From assembly GCA_028704885.1 (NCBI GenBank), contig JAQWEN010000001.1, positions 427,999 through 491,998 on the forward strand: 64,000 nucleotides of DNA. The letters are read 5' to 3'. Source of the stretch: Candidatus Shapirobacteria bacterium. GTDB lineage: Bacteria; Patescibacteriota; Microgenomatia; UBA12405. Below the pieces are notes generated by a model. It ran no database searches. It was not told where the DNA came from and saw nothing but the letters and a program-made list of their open reading frames with translations. Positions 12,889 to 47,143 of this stretch are shown here, one piece after another (position 1 is the stretch's first letter; every line of letters begins with the position of its first letter). A program made the translations under genes and the position numbers.

Positions 12889-12893
12889 ATTAT

Positions 12894-20692: not shown

Positions 20693-20694
20693 AT

Positions 20695-27100: not shown

Positions 27101-27908
27101 TTTTTAAATCAATTTTACGATTGGTTTTGACAAGCTCCCAATATTTGGTGTACATGATTGGAAATCTGAGAGCAGAATAAAAGGAAAAAACAAAACCTGG
27201 AAATCCATCAACATAGCCTCGATGTCGGAAAAAAGTTTTTAAAAACCACCAGAGCGGTTTAAAAAGATAAAAGTTCAAAAAACTAATAAAATTAATTGGA
27301 GTATTTTTTTGTTGTAATTCTTGAGCTAAAAGAGTGGTGTAACGATTGTGGCGAAGAAGATATTTAGAGAAAGAAGTGTCAGCATAATGTTCTAAATCAT
27401 TTTTAAGCCAGCCAATCTCCCCTTCTATTTTGGCTTGTTCATGGACGTCGACACAAGGAAGTCTCCCTTTGCCATTTTTATAAAATCTAATGGTTGGATC
27501 GGGATACTGACCACCTTTTTTAAGAAAAGCACCTAAAAAATAATTTTTACGAGGAATCCAAAAAGCATTTTCTTTAACCTCATCAATATCTTTTTTAAGA
27601 TATGAAATAATTTCGTTTTTAAGTTCAGGAGTAACAATTTCGTCAGCATCAAGCTGAAGAATCCAATCACTGGTGCAGCCATCAATAGCAATGTTTTTAT
27701 TGAGATGAAAGATTGGTTTATTGGTGGTTTTAATTATTTTTACATTTTTAAATTTGGAGGCAATTTCAATGGTTTTGTCTTGAGAAGTACCGTCGGCAAT
27801 TATAATTTCATCGACCCAATCAACCACAGCTTCTAAACACTTGGCGATATTATTTTCTTCATTATAAGTGGCGATAGCAACAGATATTGTTTTTAGTTGA
27901 TTTTTCAT
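27081..27908 (-). CDS. Glycosyltransferase family 2
   Basis: ISVAIATYNEENNIAKCLEAV..DEIIIADGTSQDKT and ILQLDADEIVTPEL. It is paralogous to 49981-50769 and 51679-52683. Confidence 0.7.
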   Translation of the reverse strand: MKNQLKTISVAIATYNEENNIAKCLEAVVDWVDEIIIADGTSQDKTIEIASKFKNVKIIKTTNKPIFHLNKNIAIDGCTSDWILQLDADEIVTPELKNEIISYLKKDIDEVKENAFWIPRKNYFLGAFLKKGGQYPDPTIRFYKNGKGRLPCVDVHEQAKIEGEIGWLKNDLEHYADTSFSKYLLRHNRYTTLLAQELQQKNTPINFISFLNFYLFKPLWWFLKTFFRHRGYVDGFPGFVFSFYSALRFPIMYTKYWELVKTNRKIDLKNDWDKK

Positions 27909-29527
27909 AACTTTGAGTAGATTTTAAACCCTGGCTGTCCATTTGGGAAATTAATAATTTTTATAGGTTCAATTGGAACTATTTCGTCGCTGGTTACAAC
28001 TAATGAATTTGAAGGAATTTGATTCCAATCAATTTTTTGAAAATTATATTTGTCGTAATTTAAGACGGTCGAAAAGCCGAAATTATCGGGTGGAGTTAAC
28101 TTTATTTCGGATTGGATTTTTTGAGGTGAATATTTTGAATAAAACAAAAAGAGAATATAGGGTTGGTCGTATTTATTGGTGACATAAATTTGTTTGTATT
28201 GATCTTTTTGTTGTTCTAAATAAGGAACAAGTTGATCGAAACCGTATTGCCAGGCAAAAGGATATCTTTTAGAATAATGAACAAAGTAGGAATCAAGATA
28301 ATAAGCAACGAAATAACCATAAATAAGGATAAATATTATTAAAATTAAATTTTTAATTTTTAATTTATGAACTAGATTAAAAAAAGAATAAATACCCAAG
28401 GCGATTAGAATAGAGAGCGGAATAACCATAGATAAAGCTCTAAGAGCTGATGGAGCTTGAAAAGTTAAGGATGAAGCAATTGGAGCAATTAATAAAAAAG
28501 CAATTAAAAAGATTTTAGATCGTTGATTGTAGATCGTAGATTTCAATAAAAAAATAAGACCGAGAATTAGAAAAGGCAGTTCAATTAAATTAATTTGGCC
28601 CATTTCGGGAACTTTTGATCGAGGAACTTCATCACCATTTAAGGCAAGAAAATTTAAATCAAAATGAGAAGTATATTTTTGACCCCAAGAAATCAAATAA
28701 AGAACTCTTTTATTATGCATTATTCGATTAATTAATTTGACATTATGATGATGATTAATAAGTTCATTGGCTCGCCAAATTGGGCCTTGGTCAGCAGTTA
28801 GACCAACACCGCCAATACGAGCAGTTCCACCATTGTTTAAAAATGAAAAAGCCACAGGTAAGGCTAAAAGAGCACCAAAAAATATCGGAATTAAAATTTT
28901 AGGGAAATTTTTAATTAAATTTTTGAAATAAAGAGTTACTAAAGTTAGAGCTAAAAGAGGGGCAATTAAACGGGCTGAATGATAAATATAAAGTGATAAA
29001 ACATAAAATGAAACAAAGAGACTGAAATTCAATAAAAACTTGTCTTTGATCGATTTGAAGAAAAAATAAGTACCAATGACAATAAAAGAAAGAGCGGCGG
29101 AAGACTCCCAAGCCCCACGACTGAAATGAATATGCCAAGGAGAAAGGGTTAAAACAGCAGCGGTCAAAAGTGAAAGATTATTATTTTTAGATAAAAGTAA
29201 AATTAATTTATATAAAAATAAGATGGTTAGCAGAGAAAGGATTAAATTTGGCAAACGAACAGATAAAGTGTTTAATCCAAAAAATTTGATAAAGGGAAGA
29301 GCTAAATAAACATAACCACCCGGCTTAAAATCGCCAAATGATTTGAAATGAAGAGGCCAGGAAATTCCATGTTCGTCTTTACCAGTTTGGATAAGAGAAT
29401 AAGCATTATAACCAAGAGCGGCTTCGTCTGGATTGAGAGCTGGAGTGGAATTTAAATTAATAAAACGGATTAAAAACGCAACGAAAAGAATTAATAATAA
29501 TGGTAATTTGTTAATTTTGGTAGGCAT
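27905..29527 (-). CDS. PMT_2/GT39/ArnT-like GT-C membrane glycosyltransferase (paralog A)
   Basis: After TM1 comes PALNPDEAALGYNAYSLIQTGKDEHG...FKSFGDFKPGGYVY, with the DE motif in the first loop. More than 10 TM helices. A C-terminal soluble domain carries YVTNKYDQPYILFLFYSKYSPQ. Confidence 0.75.
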   Translation of the reverse strand: MPTKINKLPLLLILFVAFLIRFINLNSTPALNPDEAALGYNAYSLIQTGKDEHGISWPLHFKSFGDFKPGGYVYLALPFIKFFGLNTLSVRLPNLILSLLTILFLYKLILLLSKNNNLSLLTAAVLTLSPWHIHFSRGAWESSAALSFIVIGTYFFFKSIKDKFLLNFSLFVSFYVLSLYIYHSARLIAPLLALTLVTLYFKNLIKNFPKILIPIFFGALLALPVAFSFLNNGGTARIGGVGLTADQGPIWRANELINHHHNVKLINRIMHNKRVLYLISWGQKYTSHFDLNFLALNGDEVPRSKVPEMGQINLIELPFLILGLIFLLKSTIYNQRSKIFLIAFLLIAPIASSLTFQAPSALRALSMVIPLSILIALGIYSFFNLVHKLKIKNLILIIFILIYGYFVAYYLDSYFVHYSKRYPFAWQYGFDQLVPYLEQQKDQYKQIYVTNKYDQPYILFLFYSKYSPQKIQSEIKLTPPDNFGFSTVLNYDKYNFQKIDWNQIPSNSLVVTSDEIVPIEPIKIINFPNGQPGFKIYSKL

Positions 29528-31148
29528 AAAAAGTAGAAATATTATTGATAGGACTTAAAGGTAAAAAATCTTTAAAACTATCAGATTTATCGATTGATTG
29601 ACGATAAATTTCATTGTAATTAAAAATTGCCAAAGTATTCGGTTGAGTTTTGATAAGACTGTAGTCAGGAGTAGTGAATTTAATATTGTCAATTTGTTCG
29701 ACTTTGCCAGTATCACCGGATGAACTTTCAGTTAATTTGGCTTGTTGTTGATAACGTTGAGGTGGATATTTTGAATAAAAAAGGTAATAAATGTAGGCTT
29801 GGCCATAATAATCACTCATAATAATGTTTTTAAATTTATTTTGGTTTTTAATTAAATAATCCATTGATTGTTGATAGCCGTAAAGAAAATCATCGGGACT
29901 TTTTTTAACCATATGGTTTAAATAAAGGTCAGAATAGTAAATAAATGAAATGGAATAAGCAAGAATAATTAAACTGCATATAAAAATATTTTTATATCTA
30001 TTAACGACAACATAAATTCCAAGAGAAATAAAATAAATTAAAGGAATAGAAAAAGACATAGTTCGGACGGCTTGAACAGTGTCTCTGGTTAGAGCGGCAG
30101 GAATTGGGGCCACTAAAAGCCACAAGAAAAAGAAAAGATTAATTTTGTCTATTTTTCGGCGACTTAGAGCAAAAAATATGCCGATGATTAGGAAAATTAG
30201 ACTAGGATAGAGAATAACACCGATATATGAAGCTGAATTTCGAGGATTTTGCCAATCACCTTCGAAGGCTAAAAATTTGGGTGAAAAATGGTTAAAATAA
30301 CGAAGTAAAACATTTCGACCGAAGAAAGATAAATGGTTGTGAAAAATATTGTAATCCAATTGACTGCTTTCATTAATAATAGTATTGGTTTCTTCGGTTG
30401 ATCGAGGATAAGAAAAAAGACTAATAACTTTTAAACGATTGGCATTGCTGCTGAAAAATAATCCATAAATTATTGGAAGTGAAAAAATAAAAAGAGGTAG
30501 AACAAAATTAAGGAAAAGAGATTTGAGGTTTTTTTTATTGACGATATTTAAATTTAATAAAAATAAGATGATGATTAAAAAAAGACTGATCATCTTGCCG
30601 GCTTGATAAGTGAAAAGAGTTAACCCAAATGTAACGGCGGAAAATAATAAATATTTATTTATTTTTTTATTGACATATTTGAAGAAAAAGTATGAAGCTA
30701 AAACTAATTCAAAAGTTAAAATATTGGTTTCCCAGGCGCCGCGAGAAAAGTGAATTGAATAGGGATTAATAATAGTGATAATAGCGGCAATAATGGCAGT
30801 TTTGTGAGCTTTTTGGTTTATTTCTTTGATTAAAAAATAGATCAAAATTGGTAATAAAGATCCAAGAATCACTGATGGTAAACGAGTGGCGGTGGTGGTT
30901 AATCCGAAAAGTTTTATGAAAGGAACGGCAAGATAAATATAAAAGCCAGGTTTGTAATCACCAAATGATTTAAAAATAATAGGTAAAGTTTGACCATATT
31001 CATCTTTGCCGGTTTCGATTAATGAATAAGCATTGTAACCAATGGCAGCTTCATCCCAAAGAAGAGTGGGATATTCCCCTATTTTGTAAAATCTTAAGAA
31101 AAAGGAAATTAGAAAAACAGAAATTAGAAAAATTTTAATTTTGGTCAT
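29511..31148 (-). CDS. PMT_2/GT39/ArnT-like GT-C membrane glycosyltransferase (paralog B)
   Basis: PTLLWDEAAIGYNAYSLIETGKDEYG...FKSFGDYKPGFYIY and a C-terminal YYGQAYIYYLFYSKYPPQ. Confidence 0.75.
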   Translation of the reverse strand: MTKIKIFLISVFLISFFLRFYKIGEYPTLLWDEAAIGYNAYSLIETGKDEYGQTLPIIFKSFGDYKPGFYIYLAVPFIKLFGLTTTATRLPSVILGSLLPILIYFLIKEINQKAHKTAIIAAIITIINPYSIHFSRGAWETNILTFELVLASYFFFKYVNKKINKYLLFSAVTFGLTLFTYQAGKMISLFLIIILFLLNLNIVNKKNLKSLFLNFVLPLFIFSLPIIYGLFFSSNANRLKVISLFSYPRSTEETNTIINESSQLDYNIFHNHLSFFGRNVLLRYFNHFSPKFLAFEGDWQNPRNSASYIGVILYPSLIFLIIGIFFALSRRKIDKINLFFFLWLLVAPIPAALTRDTVQAVRTMSFSIPLIYFISLGIYVVVNRYKNIFICSLIILAYSISFIYYSDLYLNHMVKKSPDDFLYGYQQSMDYLIKNQNKFKNIIMSDYYGQAYIYYLFYSKYPPQRYQQQAKLTESSSGDTGKVEQIDNIKFTTPDYSLIKTQPNTLAIFNYNEIYRQSIDKSDSFKDFLPLSPINNISTFYAYQN

Positions 31149-32794
31149 AGTGAGAGAATGTCAAAGGCGGGTTGATTGTTGAGAAAATAAATAGTTTTAA
31201 GTAAGGTGCTATTGTTTTTATTATAGTTGTCTGGTGAAGTGATTAAAAGAGTCTTTTGATTAATATTCTCGGTTTCCTTTTTAATTTCCCAATCATTTAT
31301 GAATCTAAATTTATCAAAACTGTTAACCCAATACCAATCAGCATGAAAATCCCAGTTTAAACGAGAATCATTTTGATATGATTTTGGATCCCAGGGCCAA
31401 TAAAATAGAACAAATTCATGGGCTTCACCGTATTTTTTAGTGAAAATAATTTGGTCATATTCATTGTAATTAGTTTTTATATAATCGACAACTTCTTTAT
31501 AACCATACTGCCAAGAGCTGGAATAATTTTTAGCATAATCGGTTAAATAATTTTTGAAATAGAAAAATGATTGAATAAGCAAAATTAATACGAATAAAAT
31601 TGTAAATAATGATTTGCTTTTTTGATTTTTAAAAAGTGAAAGAGTCTTTAAAAATCCATAAACTATAAAAATTTGAGGTAAGGGCAAAATGGTCATGGCG
31701 CGAATGATGGGAAAGTCACCAACAGTGACAACGGCAGGAATAAGACCGATTAGAAACCAAGATACAAGAAATAACGAAATCCCTCGATTTTTTATTGATT
31801 TAATTATTAAAATGATTAAGCCAATATAGAAAAATGGAAGACAAATAGGATAAAGAACGCCAGTGTTGGGAATATTAAATTGAAAATTTTGGGTACTGTT
31901 ATAAAACAGCATTTTAGGATTTATAAAACCAAGATAATTTTTGGCAACAGTAGCCGAAAATGCAGTAACTTTATTATATTTTAATTTAGCGATTAGAGGA
32001 TTACCTTGATAATTATTACGATTGTTTTCGATTTGATTAATAGTGGCTGGATTAATAGCAAAAACCCAACGACTGCGAGCCTGAGAGTCTTTATTAAAAG
32101 TACTAATTATTTGAGGAATTAATAAAAATGAAAAAACTAACAGAGTGACTAAAAATATATTTTTATTATTTTGAAATTTTTGTTTGATGTCTTTAAAAAA
32201 GATTATGAGGTAAACAAAAAGTAAAATAGGAACAACAATTTTAGTGTTGTGATAGGCATAAGTAGAAAGAGAAATAAATAAAACTCCCGGTAAAATAAAA
32301 TTTATTTTTTTGATAGCTTTAATTAAAAATAGAATTCCTAAAGAAAGGAAAAATTGAGCAACAGTCGATTGGAAAACGGCTCTGGAGGGAAAAAATGTCC
32401 AAGGAGATAGAGTAACTAAAAACATTAATAAACAAGCTATTTTTTTATCTTTAAAAATTTCTTTTCCTAGAAAATAGGCAACAATTATTAGACCAAAACC
32501 ACAAAGAGCAGAAACAATTCTGGTTGTCCAAGCATTGAGGCCAAAGAAATAAATAAAAGGCATGGAGAGATACATATTAAGAGTGGTAGGATAATCGCCA
32601 TAAGCTCGGAAATTGAAAATAGGCCAGGAAGTTGACCATTGATCTTGACCGGTTTTGATTAAGCTGTAAGCGTTGTAAGCATGGCTAATTTCATCCCAAT
32701 TTAGGCTAACTGGATATTTATCTAGAAAAAGAAAACGAGTTAGGAATCCGATGACTAAAATAATTCCAAAAATAATTGAATAAAGTTTAGTCAT
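31145..32794 (-). CDS. PMT_2/GT39/ArnT-like GT-C membrane glycosyltransferase (paralog C)
   Basis: PVSLNWDEISHAYNAYSLIKTGQDQW and a C-terminal KKYGEAHEFVLFYWPWDPK. Confidence 0.7.
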   Translation of the reverse strand: MTKLYSIIFGIILVIGFLTRFLFLDKYPVSLNWDEISHAYNAYSLIKTGQDQWSTSWPIFNFRAYGDYPTTLNMYLSMPFIYFFGLNAWTTRIVSALCGFGLIIVAYFLGKEIFKDKKIACLLMFLVTLSPWTFFPSRAVFQSTVAQFFLSLGILFLIKAIKKINFILPGVLFISLSTYAYHNTKIVVPILLFVYLIIFFKDIKQKFQNNKNIFLVTLLVFSFLLIPQIISTFNKDSQARSRWVFAINPATINQIENNRNNYQGNPLIAKLKYNKVTAFSATVAKNYLGFINPKMLFYNSTQNFQFNIPNTGVLYPICLPFFYIGLIILIIKSIKNRGISLFLVSWFLIGLIPAVVTVGDFPIIRAMTILPLPQIFIVYGFLKTLSLFKNQKSKSLFTILFVLILLIQSFFYFKNYLTDYAKNYSSSWQYGYKEVVDYIKTNYNEYDQIIFTKKYGEAHEFVLFYWPWDPKSYQNDSRLNWDFHADWYWVNSFDKFRFINDWEIKKETENINQKTLLITSPDNYNKNNSTLLKTIYFLNNQPAFDILSL

Positions 32795-32873: not shown

Positions 32874-34553
32874 ATGAAACGTTATATTTGGATAATTGCT
32901 TTAATTTTATTGATATTACCGTCTTTTATAACGCTTTTAAGACCAGGAATTCATAACATCCAGGATAATATGCAGTATTTTAGGATTTATGAAATGCAGA
33001 AATGTTTTGATGATAAACAAATACCCTGTCGTTGGGTGCCAGATATGGGTTATGGTTTTGGATATCCTTTGTTTTTATATTATTCCCCTGGCCCTTATTA
33101 TCTAGGAACTCTTTTCCATAATATTGGTTTTCAATATATAGATTCGGTAAAAATATTATTTATAGGTGGTTTTTTAATATCTGGAATTGGAATGTTTTTA
33201 TTATTGTCTAGTCTATTTTCTAATCCAAAAACAGCTCTTATTGGTTCATTAATATATGTATATGCTCCGGTTAGAGCAGTACAGGTTTATGTAAGAGGAT
33301 CTTTGGGGGAATTTTTAGCAATGGCAGTATTTCCATTTTTGTTTTTATTTTCATATCGAATTATTAAGGGTATTGGTAAAAATAATATTTTATGGTTGGG
33401 ATTGGCAGTTTTTAGTTTATTAGTGACACATAATTTAATGTCATTAGCCTTTTTTCCAATATTGGGAGCATGGATAATTTTATTGTTGATCCAAGAGAAA
33501 AAAAATAAAAAAATAATCGATTTTTTTTGGGCTTTTTTAATTGGAATCGGTTTAGCTTCTTTTTATATTGTGCCTTTGGTATTTGAGAGAGGTTATATCC
33601 ATTTAGAAAGTATGATTGGTGGTTATTTTGACTATCGACAACATTTTGTAAATTTATATCAACTATTTATTTCAAATCATTTTGGCTATGGTTCGTCTTA
33701 TTTGGGATCAGGTGATGATTTGTCTTTATCAGTGGGACAAGTACAATGGGTTTTAGGTTTAATGGCGGTGATTTTAGCAATAAAAAATTATAAAAAATCT
33801 AAAAAGAATAGTATTATTATTTTTGTTTTGGCCGGACTTAGTTTGCTAACTATTTTTCTTATTCATCAAAGATCATCTTTTATTTGGAATAAATTTAGTT
33901 TTATGGCAATGTTTCAATTCCCCTGGAGATTTTTAGTTATCAGTACTTTTCTTTTATCTTTATTGTCGAGTTATGCGATTAATTATTTTAAAGGTAAATG
34001 GCAAAATATAGTTATAGTAGTGGTTGGATTATCTTTACTTTTTTTATATGGAAGTTTTTTCAGATCGCAAAAATGGCTGAATATTAACGACCAACAATTA
34101 TTGACCGGGCAAGAATTTTTAAAACAACAAACGGCCAGTATTTTTGATTATTTACCCAAAAGTGCTATTTTGCCACCAAATCATCAAGCACCGGAATTAC
34201 CGGAATTAATTGAGGGAGACGTGGAAATATTTACTGATTATCAAAAAGGCAGTAATTGGCAGGCAGGAAAAATAATCGTATATAGTGAAACAGCAATAAT
34301 AAGATTACCAATTTTTGATTTTCCAGGAATGGAAGTAACAGATAATGGTTTTAAAATAGAAATTAATCATGATGAATGCAGGGGTCTTGATTATTGTTTT
34401 GGGCAGGTTAGTTTTAAATTAAACGAGGGAATACACCAAATTAATGTTAAATTAAAATCTACCCTACCAAGAAAAATTGGAGATTTAATAAGTTTAGTTA
34501 CATTGGTAAGTGTGCCAATATTTATGATTATTAAAAAGAAGAAATTTTTATGA
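32874..34553 (+). CDS. Large polytopic membrane protein, DD-motif family member 1 (probable GT-C-fold glycosyltransferase; may correspond to a YfhO or PTPS-related membrane family, unverified)
   Basis: After TM1 comes IQDNMQYFRIYEMQKCFDDKQIPCRWVPDMGYGFGYPLFLYYSPGPYYLG. More than 12 TM helices and a C-terminal soluble domain. It is paralogous to 34550-36190 and 55728-57467. Confidence 0.5.
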   Translation: MKRYIWIIALILLILPSFITLLRPGIHNIQDNMQYFRIYEMQKCFDDKQIPCRWVPDMGYGFGYPLFLYYSPGPYYLGTLFHNIGFQYIDSVKILFIGGFLISGIGMFLLLSSLFSNPKTALIGSLIYVYAPVRAVQVYVRGSLGEFLAMAVFPFLFLFSYRIIKGIGKNNILWLGLAVFSLLVTHNLMSLAFFPILGAWIILLLIQEKKNKKIIDFFWAFLIGIGLASFYIVPLVFERGYIHLESMIGGYFDYRQHFVNLYQLFISNHFGYGSSYLGSGDDLSLSVGQVQWVLGLMAVILAIKNYKKSKKNSIIIFVLAGLSLLTIFLIHQRSSFIWNKFSFMAMFQFPWRFLVISTFLLSLLSSYAINYFKGKWQNIVIVVVGLSLLFLYGSFFRSQKWLNINDQQLLTGQEFLKQQTASIFDYLPKSAILPPNHQAPELPELIEGDVEIFTDYQKGSNWQAGKIIVYSETAIIRLPIFDFPGMEVTDNGFKIEINHDECRGLDYCFGQVSFKLNEGIHQINVKLKSTLPRKIGDLISLVTLVSVPIFMIIKKKKFL

Positions 34554-36190
34554 AAATAAAAGAGTTATTAGTAATAATTTTATTGGTAATACCAGCAACG
34601 TTATCATTGTTTAAAACAGGGTTTTTTGGAGCATCTGATGACATGCATATTGCTTGGCTGCAGCAAATGAATCAATCAGTAAGTGAAGGACAAATACCAC
34701 CAAGATACGTGTCTGATTTAAGTTTTGGATTTGGATATCCTCTGTTTAATTTTATTTTTCCATTACCTTATTATTTAGGAGAAATTTTCCATTTGACTGG
34801 GTTAAGTTTTACTTACAGTATTAAAGCTGTTTTTATATTTAGTTTGTTTGCGTCGGCAATAACGATGTATTTTTTGGCCAGAAAATTATCTGGTAAATTT
34901 GTAGGAACGGCGGCGGCAGTACTTTATATTTATACTCCTTATCGTTCGACTGATATTTACGACAGAGGGGCATTGGGAGAGTCTTTAGCATTTGTTTTTT
35001 TACCATTGATTATATTTTTCCTGATTAAAGTTTTCGAAACAAAAGACAAAAAAGAAAATTATAAATGGATTGCGGGTGGAATTTTGTCAGTGGCAGGATT
35101 AATTTTGACTCACAATATAGTTTCTTATATGTTTATTCCTTTTGCTTTTTTATTTGGATTAATTATTTTAAACAAAAAAATAAAAGAATTATTTATATTC
35201 TTTTTTGGTGGATTATTAGGAAGTGTTTACTTTTGGCTGCCGGCACTATTAGAAAGTAAATTGATGAAATATGAAACCGTCTTTAATTTTTTTGATCATT
35301 TTCCGACAATAAAACAATTAATAACCCCTTTTTGGGGTTATGGAGCTTCGGTTCCTGGGCCATATGATGGAATGTCTTTTTTTATAGGTGAAGTAAATTT
35401 AGTGGTAATAGGAATAGTTTTATTATATGCAATTTTTCATTTTTCTAAGATTTCTTTATTAAATAAAAAAATCTTAACATGGAGTCTTTTTTTAATAGCG
35501 GCGGCGATGGTAATGATGAATTTTAGATCATCTTGGCTTTGGAAAAATATTCCATTAATTGCTTATTTTCAATTTCCTTGGCGCTTTTTAACAATGATAG
35601 TTTTTGGCTCATCATTATTGGTTGTTTTAATTAAAAATTTTAAATATGCAAAAGTATTGGCTGTATTGATTATTATGGTTTCTATAGGTCTAAACATATC
35701 TCGTTTTAGGCCTCATGACTTTTTAAATAGAGATGATAGCTATTATATTAATCGTTATATTCCAGTTCCAACTCCAAGTGAAGAATATTTAGGTCTTCAA
35801 GAAGAATATCTTAGATTGCCAAAAACAACAGAAACTAGGCCAAAAGAAGTTTACGCTCGGATTTATCCGGAAAATAGTGCTGTTAAAAACATAACCTTAA
35901 TTAATAGTTTGGATGCAAAATTTACAATCGAATCGGAGTCTGAACTGACTTTAAACTATAATAAATATTATTTTCCTGGCTGGAAGGGATTAATTGATGG
36001 CAAAAAATTAAATCTGACAAGTGGTACACCTTATGGTCAAATACAATTTACAATACCGAGCGGAAAACATGAAATCATAATTAAATATAGAGAAACTATT
36101 TTTAATAGACTATTGGATGGATTAAGCTTACTAACTGTAGTAAGTTGTTTTTATTTTGTCTTTTCTAAGAAATCAAAGTTGACTAAATAA
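34550..36190 (+). CDS. Large polytopic membrane protein, DD-motif family member 2 (probable GT-C)
   Basis: ASDDMHIAWLQQMNQSVSEGQIPPRYVSDLSFGFGYPLFNFIFPLPYYLGE, in tandem with member 1. Confidence 0.5.
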   Translation: MKIKELLVIILLVIPATLSLFKTGFFGASDDMHIAWLQQMNQSVSEGQIPPRYVSDLSFGFGYPLFNFIFPLPYYLGEIFHLTGLSFTYSIKAVFIFSLFASAITMYFLARKLSGKFVGTAAAVLYIYTPYRSTDIYDRGALGESLAFVFLPLIIFFLIKVFETKDKKENYKWIAGGILSVAGLILTHNIVSYMFIPFAFLFGLIILNKKIKELFIFFFGGLLGSVYFWLPALLESKLMKYETVFNFFDHFPTIKQLITPFWGYGASVPGPYDGMSFFIGEVNLVVIGIVLLYAIFHFSKISLLNKKILTWSLFLIAAAMVMMNFRSSWLWKNIPLIAYFQFPWRFLTMIVFGSSLLVVLIKNFKYAKVLAVLIIMVSIGLNISRFRPHDFLNRDDSYYINRYIPVPTPSEEYLGLQEEYLRLPKTTETRPKEVYARIYPENSAVKNITLINSLDAKFTIESESELTLNYNKYYFPGWKGLIDGKKLNLTSGTPYGQIQFTIPSGKHEIIIKYRETIFNRLLDGLSLLTVVSCFYFVFSKKSKLTK

Positions 36191-37896
36191 AATTCTTCTT
36201 GTTCGGTATATTTTTTATTAACTTTGTCTATTTGGTTGAATTTTATTTTAGTGGAGTGTTTTTTATTATAATTATGCAGACTGTTTTGAACCTTAATTAG
36301 ATCACGATCTGGAATTACAAAAAGAGAGTTACTGGGAAGATTATTAAATAGAATAGACCATTCAATATTTCCGAGATAGTATTTGTTTTCGGTTTGCATG
36401 CCATTAAAAAATTGATTGTTATCAGAAATTAACGAGGCGGCAGGAGATATATTTTTATTTGAAGGTAAATATTCACTATAATTTAAAAAAAATGGAGTAA
36501 AGGGCTCGTAGGAATTAATAAAATAGATTTTGGAGTAGTTAGTATCCTTAATTTTTAAAACAGCCTCTTTCATGCCATAGTGCCATTCTTTGGCGGAAAT
36601 ATTGGGATAATGAAAATAATATTGATGGGAAAAACGACCAAAACAAAGAATATATAAAAACAAGATTAGACTAATAATTATTTTTGATTTGGTAATTTCA
36701 AATATTTGTTTAAGACCTAAAAGAGAAAAAATACTTAAAAATGGCAACATTAAAATTAATCTGGTGGCATGAGGAAAGGCAGAATCTCTGGTTAAAGCAA
36801 AGGGGATTGGAGCACAAATTAAACTAATTAAAAAAAACAAATAAAATTTGCAATTAGATGATTTTTTATAAAAAATAGAAGAAATGCCGATTATTATTAA
36901 AAGTAAATCTGGAAAAAGTAAATTACCAGCAGTCTGAATACCTTGACGAAGGTTACCATCCCCTTTTAAAAATAAAAATTCAGTGGAGAAAGCAGAAAAA
37001 TAATTTTTGATAAACATTTCTGACCATTGAGCTAATTTATTGTGAAAAATTTTGGAAATAAGCATCGGCTTAAGTCCTATTTGTTGTCCAGAGACCATAA
37101 CTGAATCGTCGTAACGAAGATAGTCAACTGTTTTACTGACGGTTGGGTCGCTAAAAATATTGATATAAGAAAAACGATAACCAGAACGGCCTTTTAAGGT
37201 ATCTGATAAAAAAGGAAAAAGAGTTATCAATCCAATTAAGAACAATATTATTTTGGTTTTTAGAGAAATATTTATGATGGTTTTAAACCATAAAATTAAA
37301 AAAATAATAGCAATAAAAAATAAAAATAATTTGGCGGTGCTATAAAAATAAATAGTGAGAACAAAAGAAATTGCTGACGAAATTAAAAATTTGTCATTTT
37401 TCTGATTAATAAATTTAATCCAAAAGTAAAAACCTAAAAGTAAAAATAAAAGCATGCCAGTGGCTTCAAAACCGACTCGACTGTAGTGAAATAACCACGG
37501 AGTAATAGAAAATAAAAATGATCCGATCATGGCCCAGATGGGATTTTTATAAAGATTTTTTAAAATTAGAAAATAGACAAAAACAGAGAGAACTCCAAAT
37601 ATAGCGGCTGGTAATCTAGCAGCAAGATCGACATGGCCAATAAATCTTTGAACTATGGCAATTGAGTAAATATAAAGTGAAGTTCGCCAATCAGAATAGG
37701 AATGAAAATGAATAGGTAATTTATTACCAAAATAATCAGTTCCCCTGTTATTAAAAACAAAAGCCTGATAGTTAGCATCGGCTTCATCGGAAAAAAGAGA
37801 TGGAGGAAAAGAATTCATTTTGTAAAGATAAAGAAATAAAGAAAAGGCAATTAGAAAAATTGGAAAAATTTTGAAAGCGATAGATGTGTATTTCAT
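36151..37896 (-). CDS. PMT_2/GT39-like GT-C membrane glycosyltransferase (paralog D, divergent)
   Basis: PPSLFSDEADANYQAFVF, more than 10 TM helices, and a C-terminal YFINSYEPFTPFFLNYSEY. Confidence 0.6.
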   Translation of the reverse strand: MKYTSIAFKIFPIFLIAFSLFLYLYKMNSFPPSLFSDEADANYQAFVFNNRGTDYFGNKLPIHFHSYSDWRTSLYIYSIAIVQRFIGHVDLAARLPAAIFGVLSVFVYFLILKNLYKNPIWAMIGSFLFSITPWLFHYSRVGFEATGMLLFLLLGFYFWIKFINQKNDKFLISSAISFVLTIYFYSTAKLFLFFIAIIFLILWFKTIINISLKTKIILFLIGLITLFPFLSDTLKGRSGYRFSYINIFSDPTVSKTVDYLRYDDSVMVSGQQIGLKPMLISKIFHNKLAQWSEMFIKNYFSAFSTEFLFLKGDGNLRQGIQTAGNLLFPDLLLIIIGISSIFYKKSSNCKFYLFFLISLICAPIPFALTRDSAFPHATRLILMLPFLSIFSLLGLKQIFEITKSKIIISLILFLYILCFGRFSHQYYFHYPNISAKEWHYGMKEAVLKIKDTNYSKIYFINSYEPFTPFFLNYSEYLPSNKNISPAASLISDNNQFFNGMQTENKYYLGNIEWSILFNNLPSNSLFVIPDRDLIKVQNSLHNYNKKHSTKIKFNQIDKVNKKYTEQEEFYLVNFDFLEKTK

Positions 37897-37926: not shown

Positions 37927-39240
37927 GTGCAAAATATAATCCTAAACGTTTTTAAAAGTGCGTTGTATCCACCAACAGAAGATCAATTGGCGGTGATTAG
38001 GTATTTTTTTAATAATCTTTGGGTTTTAAGGATTTTTAGTTTAATAATTTTATTATTGGCATTATTTTTTTGGTATAAATTAATAATTAAATTAGCCGGG
38101 AAAAAAGTTTCTCTAATTTCTTGTTTACTTGTTTCTATATCGCCAACTTTTTATATTTTATGGCTAACTTGTCCGACTGAGTGTTTTAAAATATTTCTAT
38201 TAGTATTACTTGTTTTTGTTTTGAATAAAAATAAAAACTATTTTAGGAGATTTATTTTAATTTTGGGAAGTATTTATATAATTTTATTTTCATTTTTAGT
38301 AACAAAAGAAAGATCAAGTTTTGTGCATAAAATAGGTTTAAATGATGCTAAAAATGAAATAATAGAAAGGTTTATAGCTGAAGATTCATTAACTGATCCG
38401 ATAAAAATTCCTCTTAGTGTTAAAAGAATTGTATATAATAAATATTTTATCGAATATAAAGAATTGGTTAATGAAATTATTCCTTTCTTTGATATGGAAT
38501 CTTTGTTTTTCCAGGAAGTTCATCCAACCGAACAGAAATCGATAGTTATTTTTGTTTGGCCAGAGATTTTTTTACTAATTGGCGGAGTTTATCTTTTAAT
38601 TAAAATAAAAGATAAAAAAATTAATTCATTGGTAATATTGATGTTATTTTTTTCTTTAATAAACTTTTTATTTGATCCTTTTATTACTTTTAGAAAATTT
38701 GACTTGATTTTATTTCCATTGAGTTTAATTATGGCTTTGGCTGTTGGAGAAATTTATAAAACAAAAATATTTTTTGGAAAGATTTTTGGATTGGTAATTG
38801 TTTTTCTTTCCTTATATGGAACAATAGCTAATTATTCTGATTTAAATAAAAGACCAGATTTTTGGTTGGACAATAGACCTTATTTTTATGAATTTATTTT
38901 TAATTCGATAAAAAAAAGAGAACCAAATAATTTTGAAAAAATATACGTGACTAGTCTAGTCGGAAAAAGCGAAAGATACTGCAAATATTATCTGACTAAT
39001 TGTGATGAAAATAAATTTGTTTATGATTCGTTTGGATTAGAAAAAAATAAGCCAGGTAGAAATACAATATATGCTGGATTTGCTGGAGAATTTATTGGAA
39101 CTGATTTTAAAAATAATATAAACAAAGATTGGTTAGCTTTAATTAAAGAAAAAGATTTTACTAATATTGAGATAAAGAGTCTAAGGGATACTATTGCTTA
39201 CAAATTCGGGAACAATATAGTTGTTGGGGAGATTAAATAA
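37927..39240 (+). CDS. N-terminally truncated PMT_2/GT39-like paralog (membrane core plus C-terminal domain, no DE catalytic loop); degenerate copy or accessory subunit
   Basis: At 437 aa it is shorter than the 516-581-aa paralogs and starts with GTG. The C-terminal KIYVTSLVGKSERYCKYYLTNCD resembles the paralogs' C-terminal domain. No D-E first-loop motif is present. Confidence 0.4.
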   Translation: MQNIILNVFKSALYPPTEDQLAVIRYFFNNLWVLRIFSLIILLLALFFWYKLIIKLAGKKVSLISCLLVSISPTFYILWLTCPTECFKIFLLVLLVFVLNKNKNYFRRFILILGSIYIILFSFLVTKERSSFVHKIGLNDAKNEIIERFIAEDSLTDPIKIPLSVKRIVYNKYFIEYKELVNEIIPFFDMESLFFQEVHPTEQKSIVIFVWPEIFLLIGGVYLLIKIKDKKINSLVILMLFFSLINFLFDPFITFRKFDLILFPLSLIMALAVGEIYKTKIFFGKIFGLVIVFLSLYGTIANYSDLNKRPDFWLDNRPYFYEFIFNSIKKREPNNFEKIYVTSLVGKSERYCKYYLTNCDENKFVYDSFGLEKNKPGRNTIYAGFAGEFIGTDFKNNINKDWLALIKEKDFTNIEIKSLRDTIAYKFGNNIVVGEIK

Positions 39241-40916: not shown

Positions 40917-41541
40917 TTAAGATATCTAAAAAGAGAATTAATCCAAAATAAATAAAATTATCGACTATTTTTCTTTGTCGGAATTTATCTAATTGATAAG
41001 CAATATTTTTTTGAAAAGATTCTTTAAAATTTTTACTAGTATAATTGCTTCTAAAATTAATAGATTTGCTTTCATTATCACCATAAATAAAAAATTGATC
41101 ATTTAGTTCGTTATTGGTCGAGACTTTGATATAAAAAATATCACCTTTTTTGGAATCAATATAGGGAAAATTATAAGTAATCCAACTGGGATCACCAATA
41201 CTGAGTCCTGATGTTTCCAATGAATTAATGGTATTTTTATCCTTATCCTGCAGTTCAATGCTAACCATCTTACTTTGACTTTGGGTTTCAATTTCTATTT
41301 GACTTTTGTTAATAATTCCAGGATTTTTTAATAAGACTGAAATTGAACGAAGATTGTCATAATCGGCTATAAATTTTTGAGTAAAACTATGATTAACATC
41401 AAGAGATAAAACGTCACTGTAAGAAGTTTGACTGATTCCATCTCTTTTCTTTATTAAAATTGACGGCAAAATTATTAGCAAAGAAGAGAAAAATAATAAT
41501 TCACCGATTATTAAGATAAATAATTTATTTCTTTTTGGCAT
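40906..41541 (-). CDS. Membrane-anchored hypothetical protein (N- and C-terminal hydrophobic segments)
   Basis: N-terminus LFILIIGELLFFSSLLIILPSILI, with no recognisable motif. Supported only as an ORF in an operon context. Confidence 0.3.
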   Translation of the reverse strand: MPKRNKLFILIIGELLFFSSLLIILPSILIKKRDGISQTSYSDVLSLDVNHSFTQKFIADYDNLRSISVLLKNPGIINKSQIEIETQSQSKMVSIELQDKDKNTINSLETSGLSIGDPSWITYNFPYIDSKKGDIFYIKVSTNNELNDQFFIYGDNESKSINFRSNYTSKNFKESFQKNIAYQLDKFRQRKIVDNFIYFGLILFLDILIIL

Positions 41542-42718
41542 AAAAAAATGAACCGATGATACCTAATAAAAGGAGTATTTGATGAATCTGCTGTTGTAAA
41601 AGAGATGGATTAATTGACGTTTTTAATTTGATTAATTGAAAAGGTGAAGTAATATCAATAAAGGCTGAATCGATTGGAATTAAATGGCCCCAAAAAAGGA
41701 AATTATCATTAAAGAGAAAAATATAAATGTAAATTAAAATAAAAAATAATATTAAATATAATTTATTAAAAATTTTAGAATTGATAAAAATTATTAAAAT
41801 AAAAGGAAAAAACCAAATTAACCATTGGGGATGAAATTTAACTAAACCAATAAAAATTAAAAATGTTTGAGTGACAGCCAACTCAAATTTATATTTTGAT
41901 TTAGAGAAAATATAATTTATTAAAATTAATAAATATAAAATTGGGAAGATTGGTAAATTTAATAGTTTGTATTCTAATATTTTTTGAGTTAGACCGGAAC
42001 CTAAAAATGAACTAATAAAAGTGTTTTGGTTTATAAAAGGAATAACTGTAATAATTAATGGTATTAAGGAAAAACAACAATATTTTAAGTGTTTTAAAAT
42101 GTTTTTCGGTTCATAAAAAAAGATAAATGCAACAAAAATAATGGGATACATTTTTAAGGCAATTGCCAGACCAATTGATAGATAAGAAAAAAGTAATTTT
42201 TGTTTTCTTAAGAAATAAAAAGAAAGAACTGTTAAAAAAGTCGGCAGAATATCGAAATTTCCCAAGACATATATCAAATAAATGGAAATAGGATTAAACA
42301 GCCAAAAATAAAAAATTTTTGAATTATTAAAAATTTTTAAAAGTAAAATAGCTAGGCCAATATCTAAAATAAGATAGGGAATCTTAAGTAAAAACATATA
42401 ATAGATAATATTAATGTAGTTGTTTTTATTTTCACCCCAGTCATTTAACCAAAGATAAAAATCGTTACCTAGAAATGGTTTAGTAATGGCTTGGGTGATA
42501 CCAAAAGTGTAATAAGTTAGAGGTAAATAATTAAAAGTGTCTTTGTAGCCTAAGGTTGATTTATTTTGAGAAAGATATTCATAAATATTAAAAATTCCAC
42601 GAGATAAAAATTGAAAATGATAATGCTGTGACTTAATATCAGGATGATAAAAAAAAGGCATTATTAAAACACGAATCAAAATTGCCAAGAACAATATTTT
42701 TTTATATTTTGACAGCAC
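41525..42718 (-). CDS. Polytopic membrane protein, HxD-motif family member 1 (putative GT-C; motif reminiscent of the GT22 HxDE motif)
   Basis: After TM1 comes FFYHPDIKS. Shared downstream motifs are LKIPYLILDIGLAILL, LFNPISIYL and LKMYPII. It is paralogous to 45833-47143 and 59790-61001. Confidence 0.45.
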   Translation of the reverse strand: MLSKYKKILFLAILIRVLIMPFFYHPDIKSQHYHFQFLSRGIFNIYEYLSQNKSTLGYKDTFNYLPLTYYTFGITQAITKPFLGNDFYLWLNDWGENKNNYINIIYYMFLLKIPYLILDIGLAILLLKIFNNSKIFYFWLFNPISIYLIYVLGNFDILPTFLTVLSFYFLRKQKLLFSYLSIGLAIALKMYPIIFVAFIFFYEPKNILKHLKYCCFSLIPLIITVIPFINQNTFISSFLGSGLTQKILEYKLLNLPIFPILYLLILINYIFSKSKYKFELAVTQTFLIFIGLVKFHPQWLIWFFPFILIIFINSKIFNKLYLILFFILIYIYIFLFNDNFLFWGHLIPIDSAFIDITSPFQLIKLKTSINPSLLQQQIHQILLLLGIIGSFFYAKKK

Positions 42719-44406: not shown

Positions 44407-45845
44407 TTTCTTATTTGAAGGTAATAATATTTTATATCTATGTTTAGATTTGTCATACCTTCAATGTAACTTCTATTGGTTAAAAGAATCGATCCTGGAG
44501 GTGGTAGTAAGTCTGGATTAATGTAATTTAAATTATCTGTAAAATAAATAGATTCAAAAAAATTATTAGAAATATTAGTGGCCATATACGGTTTTAGATT
44601 AAGTTCTTCAGATTTAGTTTTTAATTTTTTGAATGATAAATAAGGTTTTAGATCGCCAAGAAAATTTTGGGTCAATTTGCGATAGTCGCCATAATAATGA
44701 TGAAGGAAGTCGTAATAATTGGCTAGAGATAAAAATAAAACAATAAAAATAACAATTTTTTTATAATTAGCACTTATTTTTACTAAATATTGAAAACCGT
44801 AAGTGCAAATAATGGCGTAAAAAGGAATAAGACACATTAGACGGCTGGCACGATGAACTGAGTTAACAGAACCATAGAGAAGTGGAGTGGTAAAGAATAT
44901 GAGAAGAATGAAACGAGAAAATTTATTAGTTTTGATTGATTTATATATTCCAATAAAAAACAATGGCATTGAGGCAAGGAGAAAGAAACCATGATAGCCA
45001 GTGGAATGAAAAAGGAGTTCATCCCCTTTTATAAAAAGAAAAGTGAGATCGTAACTGGAAAAATAAGGATATAAAAAATTATATAAATTATCAAAAACAG
45101 GTCTGGCTCCACCAAAAATAGCACCTGGATAATAATGGTTTAATAACGGTGAAATTAAGAAAAAAGGTAAAGAGAATAGACTGAATATAAAAAATTGTTT
45201 AATATTTTTTAAGATTGGATTTTTAAAAATGTAAATTAAAGATAATAAATACCAAATCGGAAAGACAGCCCGCATGCCCTTGTAAGTATAAAAATTAATA
45301 CCTAAAGAAAGAGCGGAAACAATTAGAAATTTGATATTTTTATTTTTTTCGTAAAGATAAAGAAAATAAAACCAGATAATAGCAAAAGGTATAGTCATAA
45401 TATTGTCTAAACCCATATGACTTTGAATCATTATTAGAGGTGTGGTGAGAAATATTAAAACAGTTAATAAAGAATATTTTTGATCGAAAACTTTTCTGGC
45501 AAATTTATAGAGTAAAAAGGAAGACAATAAAGTAATTAAGATAGAACTAAAACGAAGGAGAAAAACTGAAGGTTTGAAAAGCCAAAATAAAAAAGCTAAA
45601 TAATATTGAGTAATTGGCTGTTTCCAGTCGGTACCATTATTGGCTAAAACAAAAAGAGGAAGAAATCGGCCATTTTCATCATGTCCAGTTTTTGATAATA
45701 AGCTGGCATTATAACCAAAAGCAGTTTCATCGCCAGTTAGACCCATGGGGACATCAAGTAGTTTATAAGAAAAGAAAAGACATAATAAAACAGAAAATAT
45801 TAAAGCAAATAAAATTGGGAAAAAATATTTCTTTATTTTGAGCAT
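44400..45845 (-). CDS. PMT_2/GT39-like GT-C membrane glycosyltransferase (paralog G)
   Basis: VPMGLTGDETAFGYNASLLSKTGHDENG and more than 10 TM helices. Confidence 0.65.
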   Translation of the reverse strand: MLKIKKYFFPILFALIFSVLLCLFFSYKLLDVPMGLTGDETAFGYNASLLSKTGHDENGRFLPLFVLANNGTDWKQPITQYYLAFLFWLFKPSVFLLRFSSILITLLSSFLLYKFARKVFDQKYSLLTVLIFLTTPLIMIQSHMGLDNIMTIPFAIIWFYFLYLYEKNKNIKFLIVSALSLGINFYTYKGMRAVFPIWYLLSLIYIFKNPILKNIKQFFIFSLFSLPFFLISPLLNHYYPGAIFGGARPVFDNLYNFLYPYFSSYDLTFLFIKGDELLFHSTGYHGFFLLASMPLFFIGIYKSIKTNKFSRFILLIFFTTPLLYGSVNSVHRASRLMCLIPFYAIICTYGFQYLVKISANYKKIVIFIVLFLSLANYYDFLHHYYGDYRKLTQNFLGDLKPYLSFKKLKTKSEELNLKPYMATNISNNFFESIYFTDNLNYINPDLLPPPGSILLTNRSYIEGMTNLNIDIKYYYLQIRNQ

Positions 45846-47143
45846 AATGATTTATTTTTAAAATTAAAACTAAAAATTTTAAGAGTAATTAATAAATTAG
45901 TTAAACTTATTAAACGAACAAAAAAATCTTGTTTTAAAATAAAGATCAATGGTTTTATATTTGGTATCCACCACCAATTATATACATTCAATAAATGAGT
46001 TATTGATAATATAAAAAAATATTTAATGAATTTTTTGTCATAAAAACACAACATTAAAAGAGGTATGAGAGCCGGAAAGGTATACCTTTCATGCATTCTA
46101 GTCATAAACATAAAAGTAATTAAAGTTATATTAACTAAACTTAATAATAAATTTTGAATAGTATATTTTTTATATAATTTAAAACAAATTATTAAATAAA
46201 AAATTGAGCAAATTATTAAAGAAAATTGTCGATGAGAAATTAAATTAAAAATTAATGATTTGTCTAGTCTTTGCGGTAATAATCCATAAATTAGAGCCCA
46301 AATATTCATGGCATTGGCAGTTATTTGAGGCATAGCTCCAGGTAAAATTTTAGTAGTCATTGTTTGATAAAACCAAATTAATGGGTTAATCTCAACAGGA
46401 TTAAAAGGAAAACTAATTAACGAAATACAACTAAGTGAAAAAAAAATGGTTACCATTAATTCTCTTATTTTTATTTTGTTCTTTAAAAAACAAACCAATA
46501 ATATCGGTGCCCAAATTAAAAGCGATGGTTTATACAGAACTGAAATTATAAAAAACAAGGAAGAATATATATATTTTTTTTGCCAGGCAAAATAGACACT
46601 TAAAAGAGCAAAAAAATTAACGATACTGTCTCCACTTCCCCAAACTGAACTGTTGTAAATCATTGGAGGATAAAAAGTTAATATTATGGCAATAATTTTG
46701 GCTTTTTTTTCATTAAATTGAATTTTAATAAATTTAAAACTTGTATAAATAATTAAAATATCAAAAATTATCATTGGAAATTTAAGTAAAATTTGATTTC
46801 CATTTAGAAAAAACCATTCCATAAATTTTGAAGGAAAAATTGGTATATTTACATTTAAAAACCAAAAAAAACTATGCAACAAAGAATAAATTTGTCTTAC
46901 TCCTTCGATATAAAAGATATTCAACATCGGCTGGTCTGGACGGCCGTAACCACCAAAATTTATCCAGTCATAAAAGCCTCTAAAACCGAACTCTGAAGTA
47001 AATTGTCCCCACCAATAAGTGACGGTAATATCACCATGAAAAGTCCAAGGTAAAAGTATAAATCTGACGATGAAGGTAAAAATTAAAATATGGTAAATTT
47101 TTATTTTTTTAAAAATATTTTTTGCCATTTTTGACCAGACCAA
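45833..47143 (-). CDS. Polytopic membrane protein, HxD-motif family member 2 (putative GT-C)
   Basis: LPWTFHGDITVTY, LKFPMIIFDILIIYTSF, TFYPPMIYNS and LYKPSLL. Confidence 0.45.
   Translation of the reverse strand: MVWSKMAKNIFKKIKIYHILIFTFIVRFILLPWTFHGDITVTYWWGQFTSEFGFRGFYDWINFGGYGRPDQPMLNIFYIEGVRQIYSLLHSFFWFLNVNIPIFPSKFMEWFFLNGNQILLKFPMIIFDILIIYTSFKFIKIQFNEKKAKIIAIILTFYPPMIYNSSVWGSGDSIVNFFALLSVYFAWQKKYIYSSLFFIISVLYKPSLLIWAPILLVCFLKNKIKIRELMVTIFFSLSCISLISFPFNPVEINPLIWFYQTMTTKILPGAMPQITANAMNIWALIYGLLPQRLDKSLIFNLISHRQFSLIICSIFYLIICFKLYKKYTIQNLLLSLVNITLITFMFMTRMHERYTFPALIPLLMLCFYDKKFIKYFFILSITHLLNVYNWWWIPNIKPLIFILKQDFFVRLISLTNLLITLKIFSFNFKNKSLCSK

Follow-up and report, generated by a model that had tools for sequence, protein, structure and literature searches.

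The YfhO proteins have their role in the addition of GlcNAc to LTA in Bacillus subtilis and Staphylococcus aureus and to WTA in Listeria monocytogenes, and the B. subtilis protein is roughly 860 aa long, against about 560 aa for the family described here. Enzymes of the GT-C(A) class take their sugar from an isoprenoid-phosphate-linked donor, and the PMT/GT39 enzymes are known for protein O-glycosylation in actinobacteria and eukaryotes. The genomes of the Patescibacteria (CPR), to which the present locus belongs, are tiny.

The B. subtilis YfhO crosses the membrane about 13 times; a large extracytoplasmic domain separates the last two TM helices, the final one being a terminal anchor (PMC5836110). 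The GT-C(A) class is recognized by a first extracytoplasmic loop (EL1) with two helices, the first of which bears the catalytic acidic residue (PMC13503287), and the oligosaccharyltransferases (OST; STT3/AglB/PglB, GT66) are defined by a WWD(YG) motif together with a D-x-D/E motif in EL2 (PMC7226087). The YfhO-domain proteins PgtC2 and PgfM1 of streptococci act as glycosyltransferases on disordered regions rich in Ser and Thr (bioRxiv 10.1101/2024.05.05.592596). Bacterial YfhO-like GT-C proteins also make up 'Component 27', a large, mostly unannotated and functionally dark family, which is related to YfhO, STT3 and PglB and some relatives of which are named 'glycosyltransferase family 39 protein' (Durairaj et al., bioRxiv 10.1101/2023.03.14.532539). 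The literature was searched for the function of PF10131/PTPS_related and for Patescibacterial GT-C or OST enzymes, with no relevant result.

Three paralogs in the window

The window is a stretch of 64,000 nucleotides of contig JAQWEN010000001.1 from a Candidatus Shapirobacteria bacterium, and it carries three related genes, here called A, B and C.

32874-34553, + strand: paralog A, YfhO/PTPS_related-like GT-C protein, 559 aa, 12 TM helices, N-in/C-in
32964-33098, + strand: EL1 motif of A, residues 31-75, exact match to the regular expression
34059-34463, + strand: ectodomain of A between TM11 and TM12, residues 396-530, 135 residues, extracytoplasmic
34550-36190, + strand: paralog B, 546 aa, with D30-D31 and with QIPPRY against QIPCRW
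34637-34771, + strand: EL1 motif of B, residues 30-74, one mismatch to the regular expression
55728-57467, - strand: paralog C, 579 aa, with D36-D37
57228-57362, - strand: EL1 motif of C, residues 36-80, exact match to the regular expression

The original prediction of a three-member family was borne out, with full-length open reading frames exactly at the predicted positions. Pairwise alignment gave 31-36% identity among A, B and C over the full length, and BLASTP gave E values of 6e-65 for A-B and 7e-110 for A-C, so the three are true paralogs and do not resemble each other by chance. The predicted tandem of two copies on the plus strand consists of A and B, in which the stop codon of A and the start codon of B share a 4-base ATGA overlap, and B is translationally coupled to A through this overlap. 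A promoter scan near A-B found 27 sites against 23.1 expected, which is not above chance, and therefore no expression signal is claimed. Scans for tRNAs and tandem repeats gave nothing relevant.

The motif proposed to follow TM1 is present in all three proteins; it is exact in A and C, but in B an Ile stands where the pattern has [YF]. In the six-frame translation of the window, its core QIP[CP]R[WY].[PS]D occurs just three times.

Fold, profile matches and conserved residues

On the structural models, A, B and C are integral-membrane proteins of the GT-C(A) class with the GT-C fold. They have 12 TM helices, both termini in the cytoplasm and a 65-residue EL1 with two helices, as the class definition describes. 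In the model of A, this loop spans residues 23-87 with helices at 34-46 and 73-83, and D31 is the N-cap residue of the first one, a position judged from secondary structure and not from active-site superposition. The N-terminal conserved module of seven TM helices superposes on solved GT-C enzymes, which also belongs to the definition of the class. In the fold comparison, the best structural match of the family was AftD, and the TM domain was as similar to the monosaccharide transferases AftD, Pmt4, ALG12 and ArnT as to OSTs, in agreement with the GT-C likeness first suspected. The PDB sequence and profile searches, made with B, with a 47-sequence profile and with the profile and domain of the gene at 52634-54343 (listed below), gave nothing useful; the link of these proteins to solved structures comes from the fold comparison.

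The ectodomain of A contains a beta-sandwich at about residues 444-527 with a coupled Cys502/Cys508 pair. The beta-sandwich is similar to accessory domains of carbohydrate-active enzymes, and the ectodomain probably binds the glycan acceptor. AftD and Emb also carry an ectodomain of the carbohydrate-binding type (PMC11127046). As in YfhO, the ectodomain is placed between the last two TM helices, but the present family has 12 TM helices instead of 13 and an ectodomain of 135 aa instead of 389 aa (PMC5836110).

PTPS_related (PF10131), a family of the GT-C clan without known function, is the top Pfam match of all three paralogs, with 16.9 bits for A, 26.2 bits for B and 14.2 bits for C, all below the gathering threshold of 26.4 bits. 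At E<=1e-3, 37 of the 47 family members match PF10131, and 39-53 bits are reached by orthologs and by paralogs in sister genomes; A, B and C are therefore homologous to this family, though divergent. The match begins after EL1 and takes in positions 1 to about 300 of the 621-position model, so that the motif with the putative catalytic Asp lies outside the Pfam model. For YfhO (PF09586, threshold 28.5 bits), A, B and C gave no match at E<=1, and the GT-C core of orthologs at about 50% identity reached 30-46 bits over model positions 63-387. The suggested likeness to YfhO or PTPS-related proteins is supported by orthologs that pass PF10131 and PF09586, though A, B and C individually stay below the thresholds. 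GT39 PMTs are recognized by a PMT/PMT_2 match above threshold together with the DE motif, and A, B and C do not qualify: the PMT_2 model matched C only, with 22.9 bits where 26.1 bits are required. Profile-profile comparison with the GT39-like genes of the window gave a probability of 95.9% at 15% identity, a relationship that is real but distant, and no NCBIfam model matched A, B or C.

The EL1 of A contains D31, the pair Cys44/Cys52, Q49-x-P51-x-R53, D57 and G63-Y-P65. D31 (A numbering) is kept in 443 of 447 relatives and is the putative catalytic base, as judged from the model. A DD had been named in advance as the hallmark of GT-C catalysis; of this pair only the first Asp is conserved, and the second position is variable across the 447 relatives and is Asn in A itself. 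The two cysteines of EL1 are coupled in the same set (both in 334, neither in 112, one in 1), and a disulfide is predicted for them as well as for Cys502 and Cys508. The other invariant polar residues among the relatives all fall on the predicted outer face, and the invariant basic or polar residues at the outer membrane boundary are R53, R141, E146, H186, H257 and Q348-x-P-W-R352 in A numbering.

The GT39 PMT/ArnT-like enzymes and AftD have the GT-CA fold in common with the present family, as well as an acidic residue that opens the first loop helix, 9 residues past TM1. With the GT39-like proteins, hhalign also found a common R-G-x3-E element. The differences are an identity of about 10%, the lack of PMT or MIR domains in the present family, and a variable module and C-terminal anchor that are unlike its own. 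The placing of D31 on the 'DE' motif of GT39 by hhalign was discarded, because in the alignment to the GT39-like genes this motif lands three residues off D31. A PDB search with the GT39-like profile, made to place D31 via solved PMT/ArnT structures, gave nothing useful.

Gene neighbourhood and arrays in relatives

The following genes of the window accompany the three paralogs.

27905-32794, - strand: three tandem GT39-like (PMT) GT-C genes, divergent from A-B, PF02366 above threshold
36151-37896, - strand: GT39-like GT-C, convergent with B, PMT_2 30.6 bits
52634-54343, - strand: Pfam-dark GT-C with an oligosaccharyltransferase-like fold by fold comparison, conserved cassette partner, with an invariant Y476-E477-T478
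54301-55791, - strand: Wzx-type (Polysacc_synt_3) flippase, directly downstream of C, PF13440 2.4e-43
57448-58998, - strand: GT39-like GT-C, directly upstream of C, PMT_2 E 1e-4 and below the Pfam threshold, aligns with the GT39-like paralogs of the window
58979-59758, - strand: GT2 of the polyprenyl-phosphate glycosyltransferase type (GtrB/DPMS/ArnC-like), 259 aa, without TM helix, PF00535
62474-63238, - strand: second GT2 of the polyprenyl-phosphate glycosyltransferase type (ArnC/PpgS-like), by sequence matches

As predicted, C adjoins a GT39-like gene followed by a Dpm1-like one. The best solved relatives of this GT2 are GtrB (5EKE, 3e-13), the Pyrococcus dolichol-P-mannose synthase (DPMS; 5MLZ, 5e-13) and ArnC; its NCBIfam matches, of which PgfS is the best, are all far below the cut-offs. 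Judged from its sequence, it likely makes the lipid-phosphate-sugar donor. The pairing of C with a GtrB/DPMS-type GT2 two genes upstream and a Wzx-type gene directly downstream recurs in related loci. The YfhO-type three-component pairing with a GT-A synthase and a flippase is thus present for C; A and B have no such genes immediately adjacent. Linkage to a GT-A/GT2 gene for the lipid-phosphate-sugar is a further likeness to YfhO, but YfhO is one gene paired with csbB, whereas the family in Patescibacteria comes as 3-4 tandem sub-functionalised paralogs. No GtrA-type flippase was found among the window genes scanned, and the window showed no teichoic-acid genes. The island also carries many cytoplasmic GT2/GT4 enzymes and sugar epimerases/dehydratases, and this bacterium gives about 35 kb to about 17 membrane glycosyltransferases of the GT-C type. 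A DUF11 surface-repeat protein lies at the island edge.

The family is real and very large, with over 5,000 clusters when grouped at 50% identity (E<=1e-30) and no characterised member, and it belongs to a known GT-C class and is not a new enzyme type. Its public annotation is inconsistent ("hypothetical", "GT39 family", "PTPS-related"), and some A homologs are named 'glycosyltransferase family 39 protein' at NCBI. Compared by description, Component 27 has a median length of 665 aa against about 560 aa here. In Microgenomates, the family is abundant, and 3-4 sub-functionalised paralogs stand together in conserved tandem arrays, whose neighbours are GT-Cs of the GT39-like and GT87-like kinds, GT2s of the polyprenyl-phosphate-sugar-synthase type and a Wzx-like flippase. 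A belongs to subfamily 'cluster 2', which takes the first slot in the arrays of relatives, and B to 'cluster 4', which takes the third. C falls in the subfamily cluster of A, but its slot is that of the copy directly preceding the Wzx-like gene. The closest relative (L001) has the same arrangement of three GT39-like genes and A-B. In 28 of 50 related loci, the gene directly upstream of the array is GT39-like and points the same way; 40 of the 50 full-flank loci have a Wzx-like gene, which in 23 comes directly after the last copy.

Natural two-unit fusions of family members exist. The fused N-terminal GT2, considered as a sign of donor coupling, was rejected, since it is a generic glycan-building GT2 and not a polyprenyl-phosphate sugar synthase; the fusion itself is thus no proof of such coupling.

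Proposed function and alternative readings

A, B and C belong to the GT-C class, on the YfhO/PTPS_related (PF09586/PF10131) branch, each in effect a 'mini-YfhO', and are most likely glycosyltransferases that use a lipid-phosphate-sugar to extend or decorate a glycan of the envelope on the outer side of the membrane. The analysis itself gave the paralogy, the GT-C fold, the PF10131/YfhO homology, the conservation and outer-face location of residues and the gene context, and we infer which donor is used, what the residues do in catalysis and what accepts the sugar. By analogy with the family, a cytoplasmic GT2 (58979-59758 and/or 62474-63238) would put a monosaccharide on polyprenyl phosphate, and the product would be flipped, possibly via the Wzx-type protein (54301-55791). 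Each paralog would then move the flipped sugar to a glycan acceptor at the outer face, where the invariant Asp capping the first loop helix (D31 in A, D30 in B, D36 in C) may activate the acceptor hydroxyl and the boundary residues listed above, from R53 to R352, may bind a metal ion or the phosphate of the donor. In concert with the GT39-like and GT87-like GT-Cs beside them, the paralogs would extend or decorate a glycan of the envelope that is linked to a lipid or to the wall. Because the order of the subfamily genes is fixed across Microgenomates, each paralog probably adds a different sugar or linkage in sequence.

The cytoplasmic GT2/GT4 enzymes, the epimerases/dehydratases and the Wzx-type flippase are typical of oligo- or polysaccharide building, the beta-sandwich resembles accessory domains of carbohydrate-active enzymes, and no candidate protein substrate was identified. 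These points make it unlikely that the paralogs use the same chemistry to O-glycosylate Ser/Thr-rich regions of surface or membrane-associated proteins, for which PgtC2 and PgfM1 are a precedent (bioRxiv 10.1101/2024.05.05.592596) and with which the surrounding GT39-like (PMT) genes, the PgfS match of the adjacent GT2 and the DUF11 protein would agree. It is highly improbable that they act like an OST or ligase, with a ready-made glycan passed en bloc from its polyprenyl-diphosphate carrier to the final acceptor. OST identity was rejected because A, B and C lack the WWD and D-x-D/E motifs; the C-terminal domain is a small beta-sandwich and not the OST globular domain, and the TM domain is equally similar to monosaccharide transferases. 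In addition, 3-4 serial copies speak against a terminal transfer step, and the gene at 52634-54343 next door is a better OST candidate. A role without catalysis, be it as GT-C-fold subunits of the PIG-U/GAB1 kind or as a flippase or scaffold for the lipid-linked donor, is scarcely credible, since none of the three subfamilies departs from the putative catalytic Asp and about ten polar residues of the outer face, which is unexpected for degenerate subunits, and active enzymes are the best structural matches at much higher Z.

For the preferred reading, as lipid-phosphate-sugar-dependent enzymes of glycan building, a wider and much more speculative form is a Microgenomates-wide extracytoplasmic assembly line. 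Its members, sub-functionalised and in the conserved order A-X-B-C, would work in turn on a flipped lipid-linked oligosaccharide, with GT39-like, GT87-like and ALG6/8-like GT-Cs alongside and en bloc transfer of the finished glycan by the protein of 52634-54343; given the natural two-unit fusions, they may act as hetero-oligomers. If true, minimal-genome organisms would have a bacterial equivalent of the pathway that leads from ALG3/9/12 to OST in the ER lumen.

With the branch assignment, the short list of invariant residues on the outer face and the conserved cassette, these proteins are open to direct tests. The results point to extensive extramembrane glycan construction as a major, unexplored part of the CPR envelope, which is likely important for the episymbiotic lifestyle.

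Three membrane proteins and their conserved outer face

Three open reading frames of the AT-rich window (GC about 29%) encode polytopic membrane proteins, and their coordinates agree with the original prediction:

32874-34553, +: A, 559 aa
34550-36190, +: B, 546 aa
55728-57467, -: C, 579 aa

The first two genes are joined by an ATGA overlap, and pairwise alignment shows that the three proteins are collinear end to end with 31-36% identity (BLASTP: A-B 6e-65; A-C 7e-110). A Candidatus Shapirobacteria MAG (contig JAQUEN010000001.1) encodes a hypothetical protein with 100% identity to A. Searched as a regular expression, the motif predicted behind the first transmembrane (TM) segment fits A and C in full and B at all positions but one, where Ile stands instead of [YF]. 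Its core, QIP[CP]R[WY].[PS]D, occurs only three times in the six-frame translation of the window, in A, B and C.

The helices of the structure model predict 12 TM segments and place the N- and C-terminus inside; the short cytoplasmic loops comprise 26 residues, with 11 K/R and zero D/E. The modeled extracytoplasmic parts are as follows (A numbering):

23-87: first loop (EL1), with two helices, 34-46 and 73-83
242-288: loop of 47 residues
331-351: loop of 21 residues
396-530: domain of 135 residues with a beta-sandwich, followed by the terminal TM anchor

In YfhO the ectodomain is inserted between the penultimate and the final TM helix (PMC5836110); the modeled layout is of this kind, but much shorter. 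In an alignment of 447 sequences (A, B, C, ORFs of 80 related loci and database homologs), conservation is highest in the outer loops. H186 is present in 447/447, R141, E146, Q348 and R352 each in 446/447, R53 in 445/447, H257 in 430/447, D57 in 414/447 and W351 in about 100%; the model places all of these on the outer face together with D31. Of the proposed "DD" hallmark, the first Asp (D31) holds in 443/447, but the second position is variable (D 348, N 30, E 15) and is Asn in A itself. By secondary-structure position, D31 lies nine residues past TM1 and N-caps the first helix of EL1, a place that is also taken by the DE in GT39-like proteins of the window; GT-CA enzymes have their catalytic base there (PMC13503287). 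Furthermore, C44/C52 are both present in 334 sequences, both absent in 112 and single in 1, and C502/C508 are both present in 172, both absent in 275 and never single. Such strict coupling is the pattern expected of extracytoplasmic disulfides, which the two pairs would form.

Kinship with GT-C glycosyltransferases

In Pfam, A, B and C reach 16.9, 26.2 and 14.2 bits with PF10131 (PTPS_related), below the cut-off of 26.4; C also has a sub-threshold PMT_2 match (22.9 bits), and no NCBIfam model matched the three proteins. The predicted PF10131/YfhO relationship is seen above threshold in their relatives instead. Orthologs at about 50% identity pass the gathering scores of both PF10131 and PF09586 (YfhO), covering YfhO model positions 63-387, and among 47 aligned family members PF10131 is matched by 37, PF09586 by 15 and PMT_2 by 8. 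Taken as a whole, the family is clearly tied to these models. The Pfam GT-C clan includes PF10131 (PMC7801869).

Fold comparison with solved structures gave the following scores:

AftD, 21.3
STT3B, 20.0
AglB, 19.9
Pmt4, 19.5
ALG12, 18.9
AftA, 18.6
ArnT, 18.1
PglB, 17.6

The Foldseek result is consistent with these GT-C matches. Searching the PDB by sequence or by profile returned no match for the family, indicating that solved structures exist for none of its close relatives. The family profile aligned with the window's GT39-like paralogs over 374 columns (profile-profile probability 95.9%, E 5.6e-9), with R141-G-x3-E146 set against S-R-G-A-W-E.

On these comparisons, A, B and C are homologous to YfhO-type GT-C enzymes and would work like them. 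All three miss the Pfam thresholds of PF10131 and PF09586; the most fitting description is a divergent, compact subfamily of the YfhO/PTPS_related lineage. Component 27, a published "dark" YfhO-like family, is comparable. Our search found no functional literature on PF10131.

Family arrays and the glycan island

At E<=1e-3 the three-paralog profile recovered 16,541 cluster representatives (50% identity), of which 5,114 remained at E<=1e-30. Guided by the motif, a scan with a single genome for each species located at least 565 related loci. The best 80 of these are all Microgenomates (Woesebacteria, Daviesbacteria, Shapirobacteria, Collierbacteria). Forty of the 80, including L005, L007 and L008, are titled "uncultured Gammaproteobacteria/Pseudomonadales" (binchicken); these labels are probably wrong, because the records carry the Microgenomates cassette (36-51% identity) at a low mean GC of 36.6%. 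Gene context was counted in 50 loci with full 8-kb flanks:

Tandem family copies, 45/50
Three or more family copies, 39/50
GT39-like gene, 47/50
Wzx-like gene, 40/50
Polyprenyl-phosphate-GT-type GT2, 31/50
Homolog of 52634-54343, 31/50
GT87-like gene, 28/50

Clustering resolved three main subfamilies in a fixed gene order, A-type first, X-type second and B-type third, often with a further A/C-like copy directly before Wzx; the commonest cluster patterns over the 80 loci are 2-1-4 (32 loci) and 2-1-4-2 (8 loci). The X-type (cluster 1), second in most arrays, is clearly above the PF10131 threshold. No X-type paralog is present within the 64-kb window; it may have been lost or be encoded in another part of the genome. 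In the window, A-B is split from C, which retains the ancestral place between the GT39-like gene and Wzx.

A typical cassette, L003 from Daviesbacteria, opens with a fusion of GT2 and GtrA/DPMS TM domain, followed by a predicted fusion of a polyprenyl-phosphate-GT-type GT2 with a PMT_2 GT-C (3322-5520, 732 aa), a GT2, a PMT_2, four copies of the family, two of which exceed the PF10131 threshold, and Wzx. Other natural fusions, counted as predicted polypeptides in which gene-calling merges are possible, join an N-terminal GT2 to the family domain (about 820-830 aa; P0083, P0126, P0127, P0172), an A/X-type to a B-type unit, two or more family units (1093-3329 aa; P0121, P0123, P0143, P0189), or the family domain to PMT. 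The GT2 of the GT2-family fusion was rejected as a lipid-phosphate-sugar synthase, since it matches the generic glycan-building type.

The Dpm1-like neighbor predicted for C proved most similar to GtrB, DPMS and ArnC, and has no TM segment. Together with the Wzx-type gene, it recalls the proposed Streptococcus pyogenes system of soluble GT-A, Wzx-type flippase and GT-C (PMC8035078). The neighbors of C and other genes of the window are:

58979-59758, -: GT2, two genes upstream of C
54301-55791, -: Wzx-type flippase
52634-54343, -: Pfam-dark gene, OST-like fold
27905-62595: about 17 GT-C-type genes in 35 kb, an extraordinary density (about ten PMT/PMT_2-like, A, B, C, 52634-54343, two GT87-like, one ALG6/ALG8-like)
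41525-42718, 59790-61001: GT87-like
45833-47143: ALG6/ALG8-like (27.8 bits, cut-off 25)
9781-14354, 17384-18496, 22756-24261 (-): four B12-binding and one SPASM radical SAM genes, embedded among GT2/GT4 genes; may perform unusual sugar modification, e.g., C-methylation
16339-17376, 19622-21765: three NAD-dependent sugar epimerase/dehydratases
5261-7018, +: 585 aa, "SDD" after TM1, a GT39-like TM core matched by hhalign to the profile of the GT39-like proteins (probability 82.5%) and TPR repeats at the C-terminus, a TMTC-like architecture of GT-C plus TPR
37927-39240, +: 437 aa membrane protein without Pfam match; the match to the GT39-like profile is confined to a short internal stretch of it (probability 94.6%, 52 columns), TM1/EL1 seems missing, perhaps a GT-C that is truncated or degenerate
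63283-63933, +: DUF11 repeat protein, 216 aa, at the island edge; may be a surface protein and candidate glycosylation substrate

Proposed reaction and acceptor

The reading with the best support is that the proteins carry out an inverting-type GT-C transfer at the outer face, dependent on a lipid-phosphate-sugar. In this reaction D31 would act as the catalytic base, and the invariant Arg, His and Glu at the membrane boundary would be ligands of the donor phosphate or a metal ion. That the A-, X- and B-type subfamilies keep a fixed order suggests that they perform distinct, probably sequential, steps.

As acceptor, a lipid-linked or wall-linked glycan is favored, because the entire window is a glycan-building island of GT2 and GT4 genes, sugar epimerase/dehydratases and radical-SAM enzymes. 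The main rival is protein O-glycosylation, which is known for the YfhO-family proteins PgtC2 and PgfM1. An OST-like role of A, B and C is unlikely, since both the WWD and DxD motifs are missing from them, and a non-catalytic role is likewise unlikely, the invariant residues being kept in all subfamilies. The 52634-54343 protein has neither WWD nor DxD and carries an invariant Y476-E477-T478 behind the last TM helix; its features hint at a possible OST-like terminal step of the A/B/C pathway. No literature on GT-C arrays in Patescibacteria was found, and the tandem, sub-functionalised arrays are noteworthy, though not categorically new.
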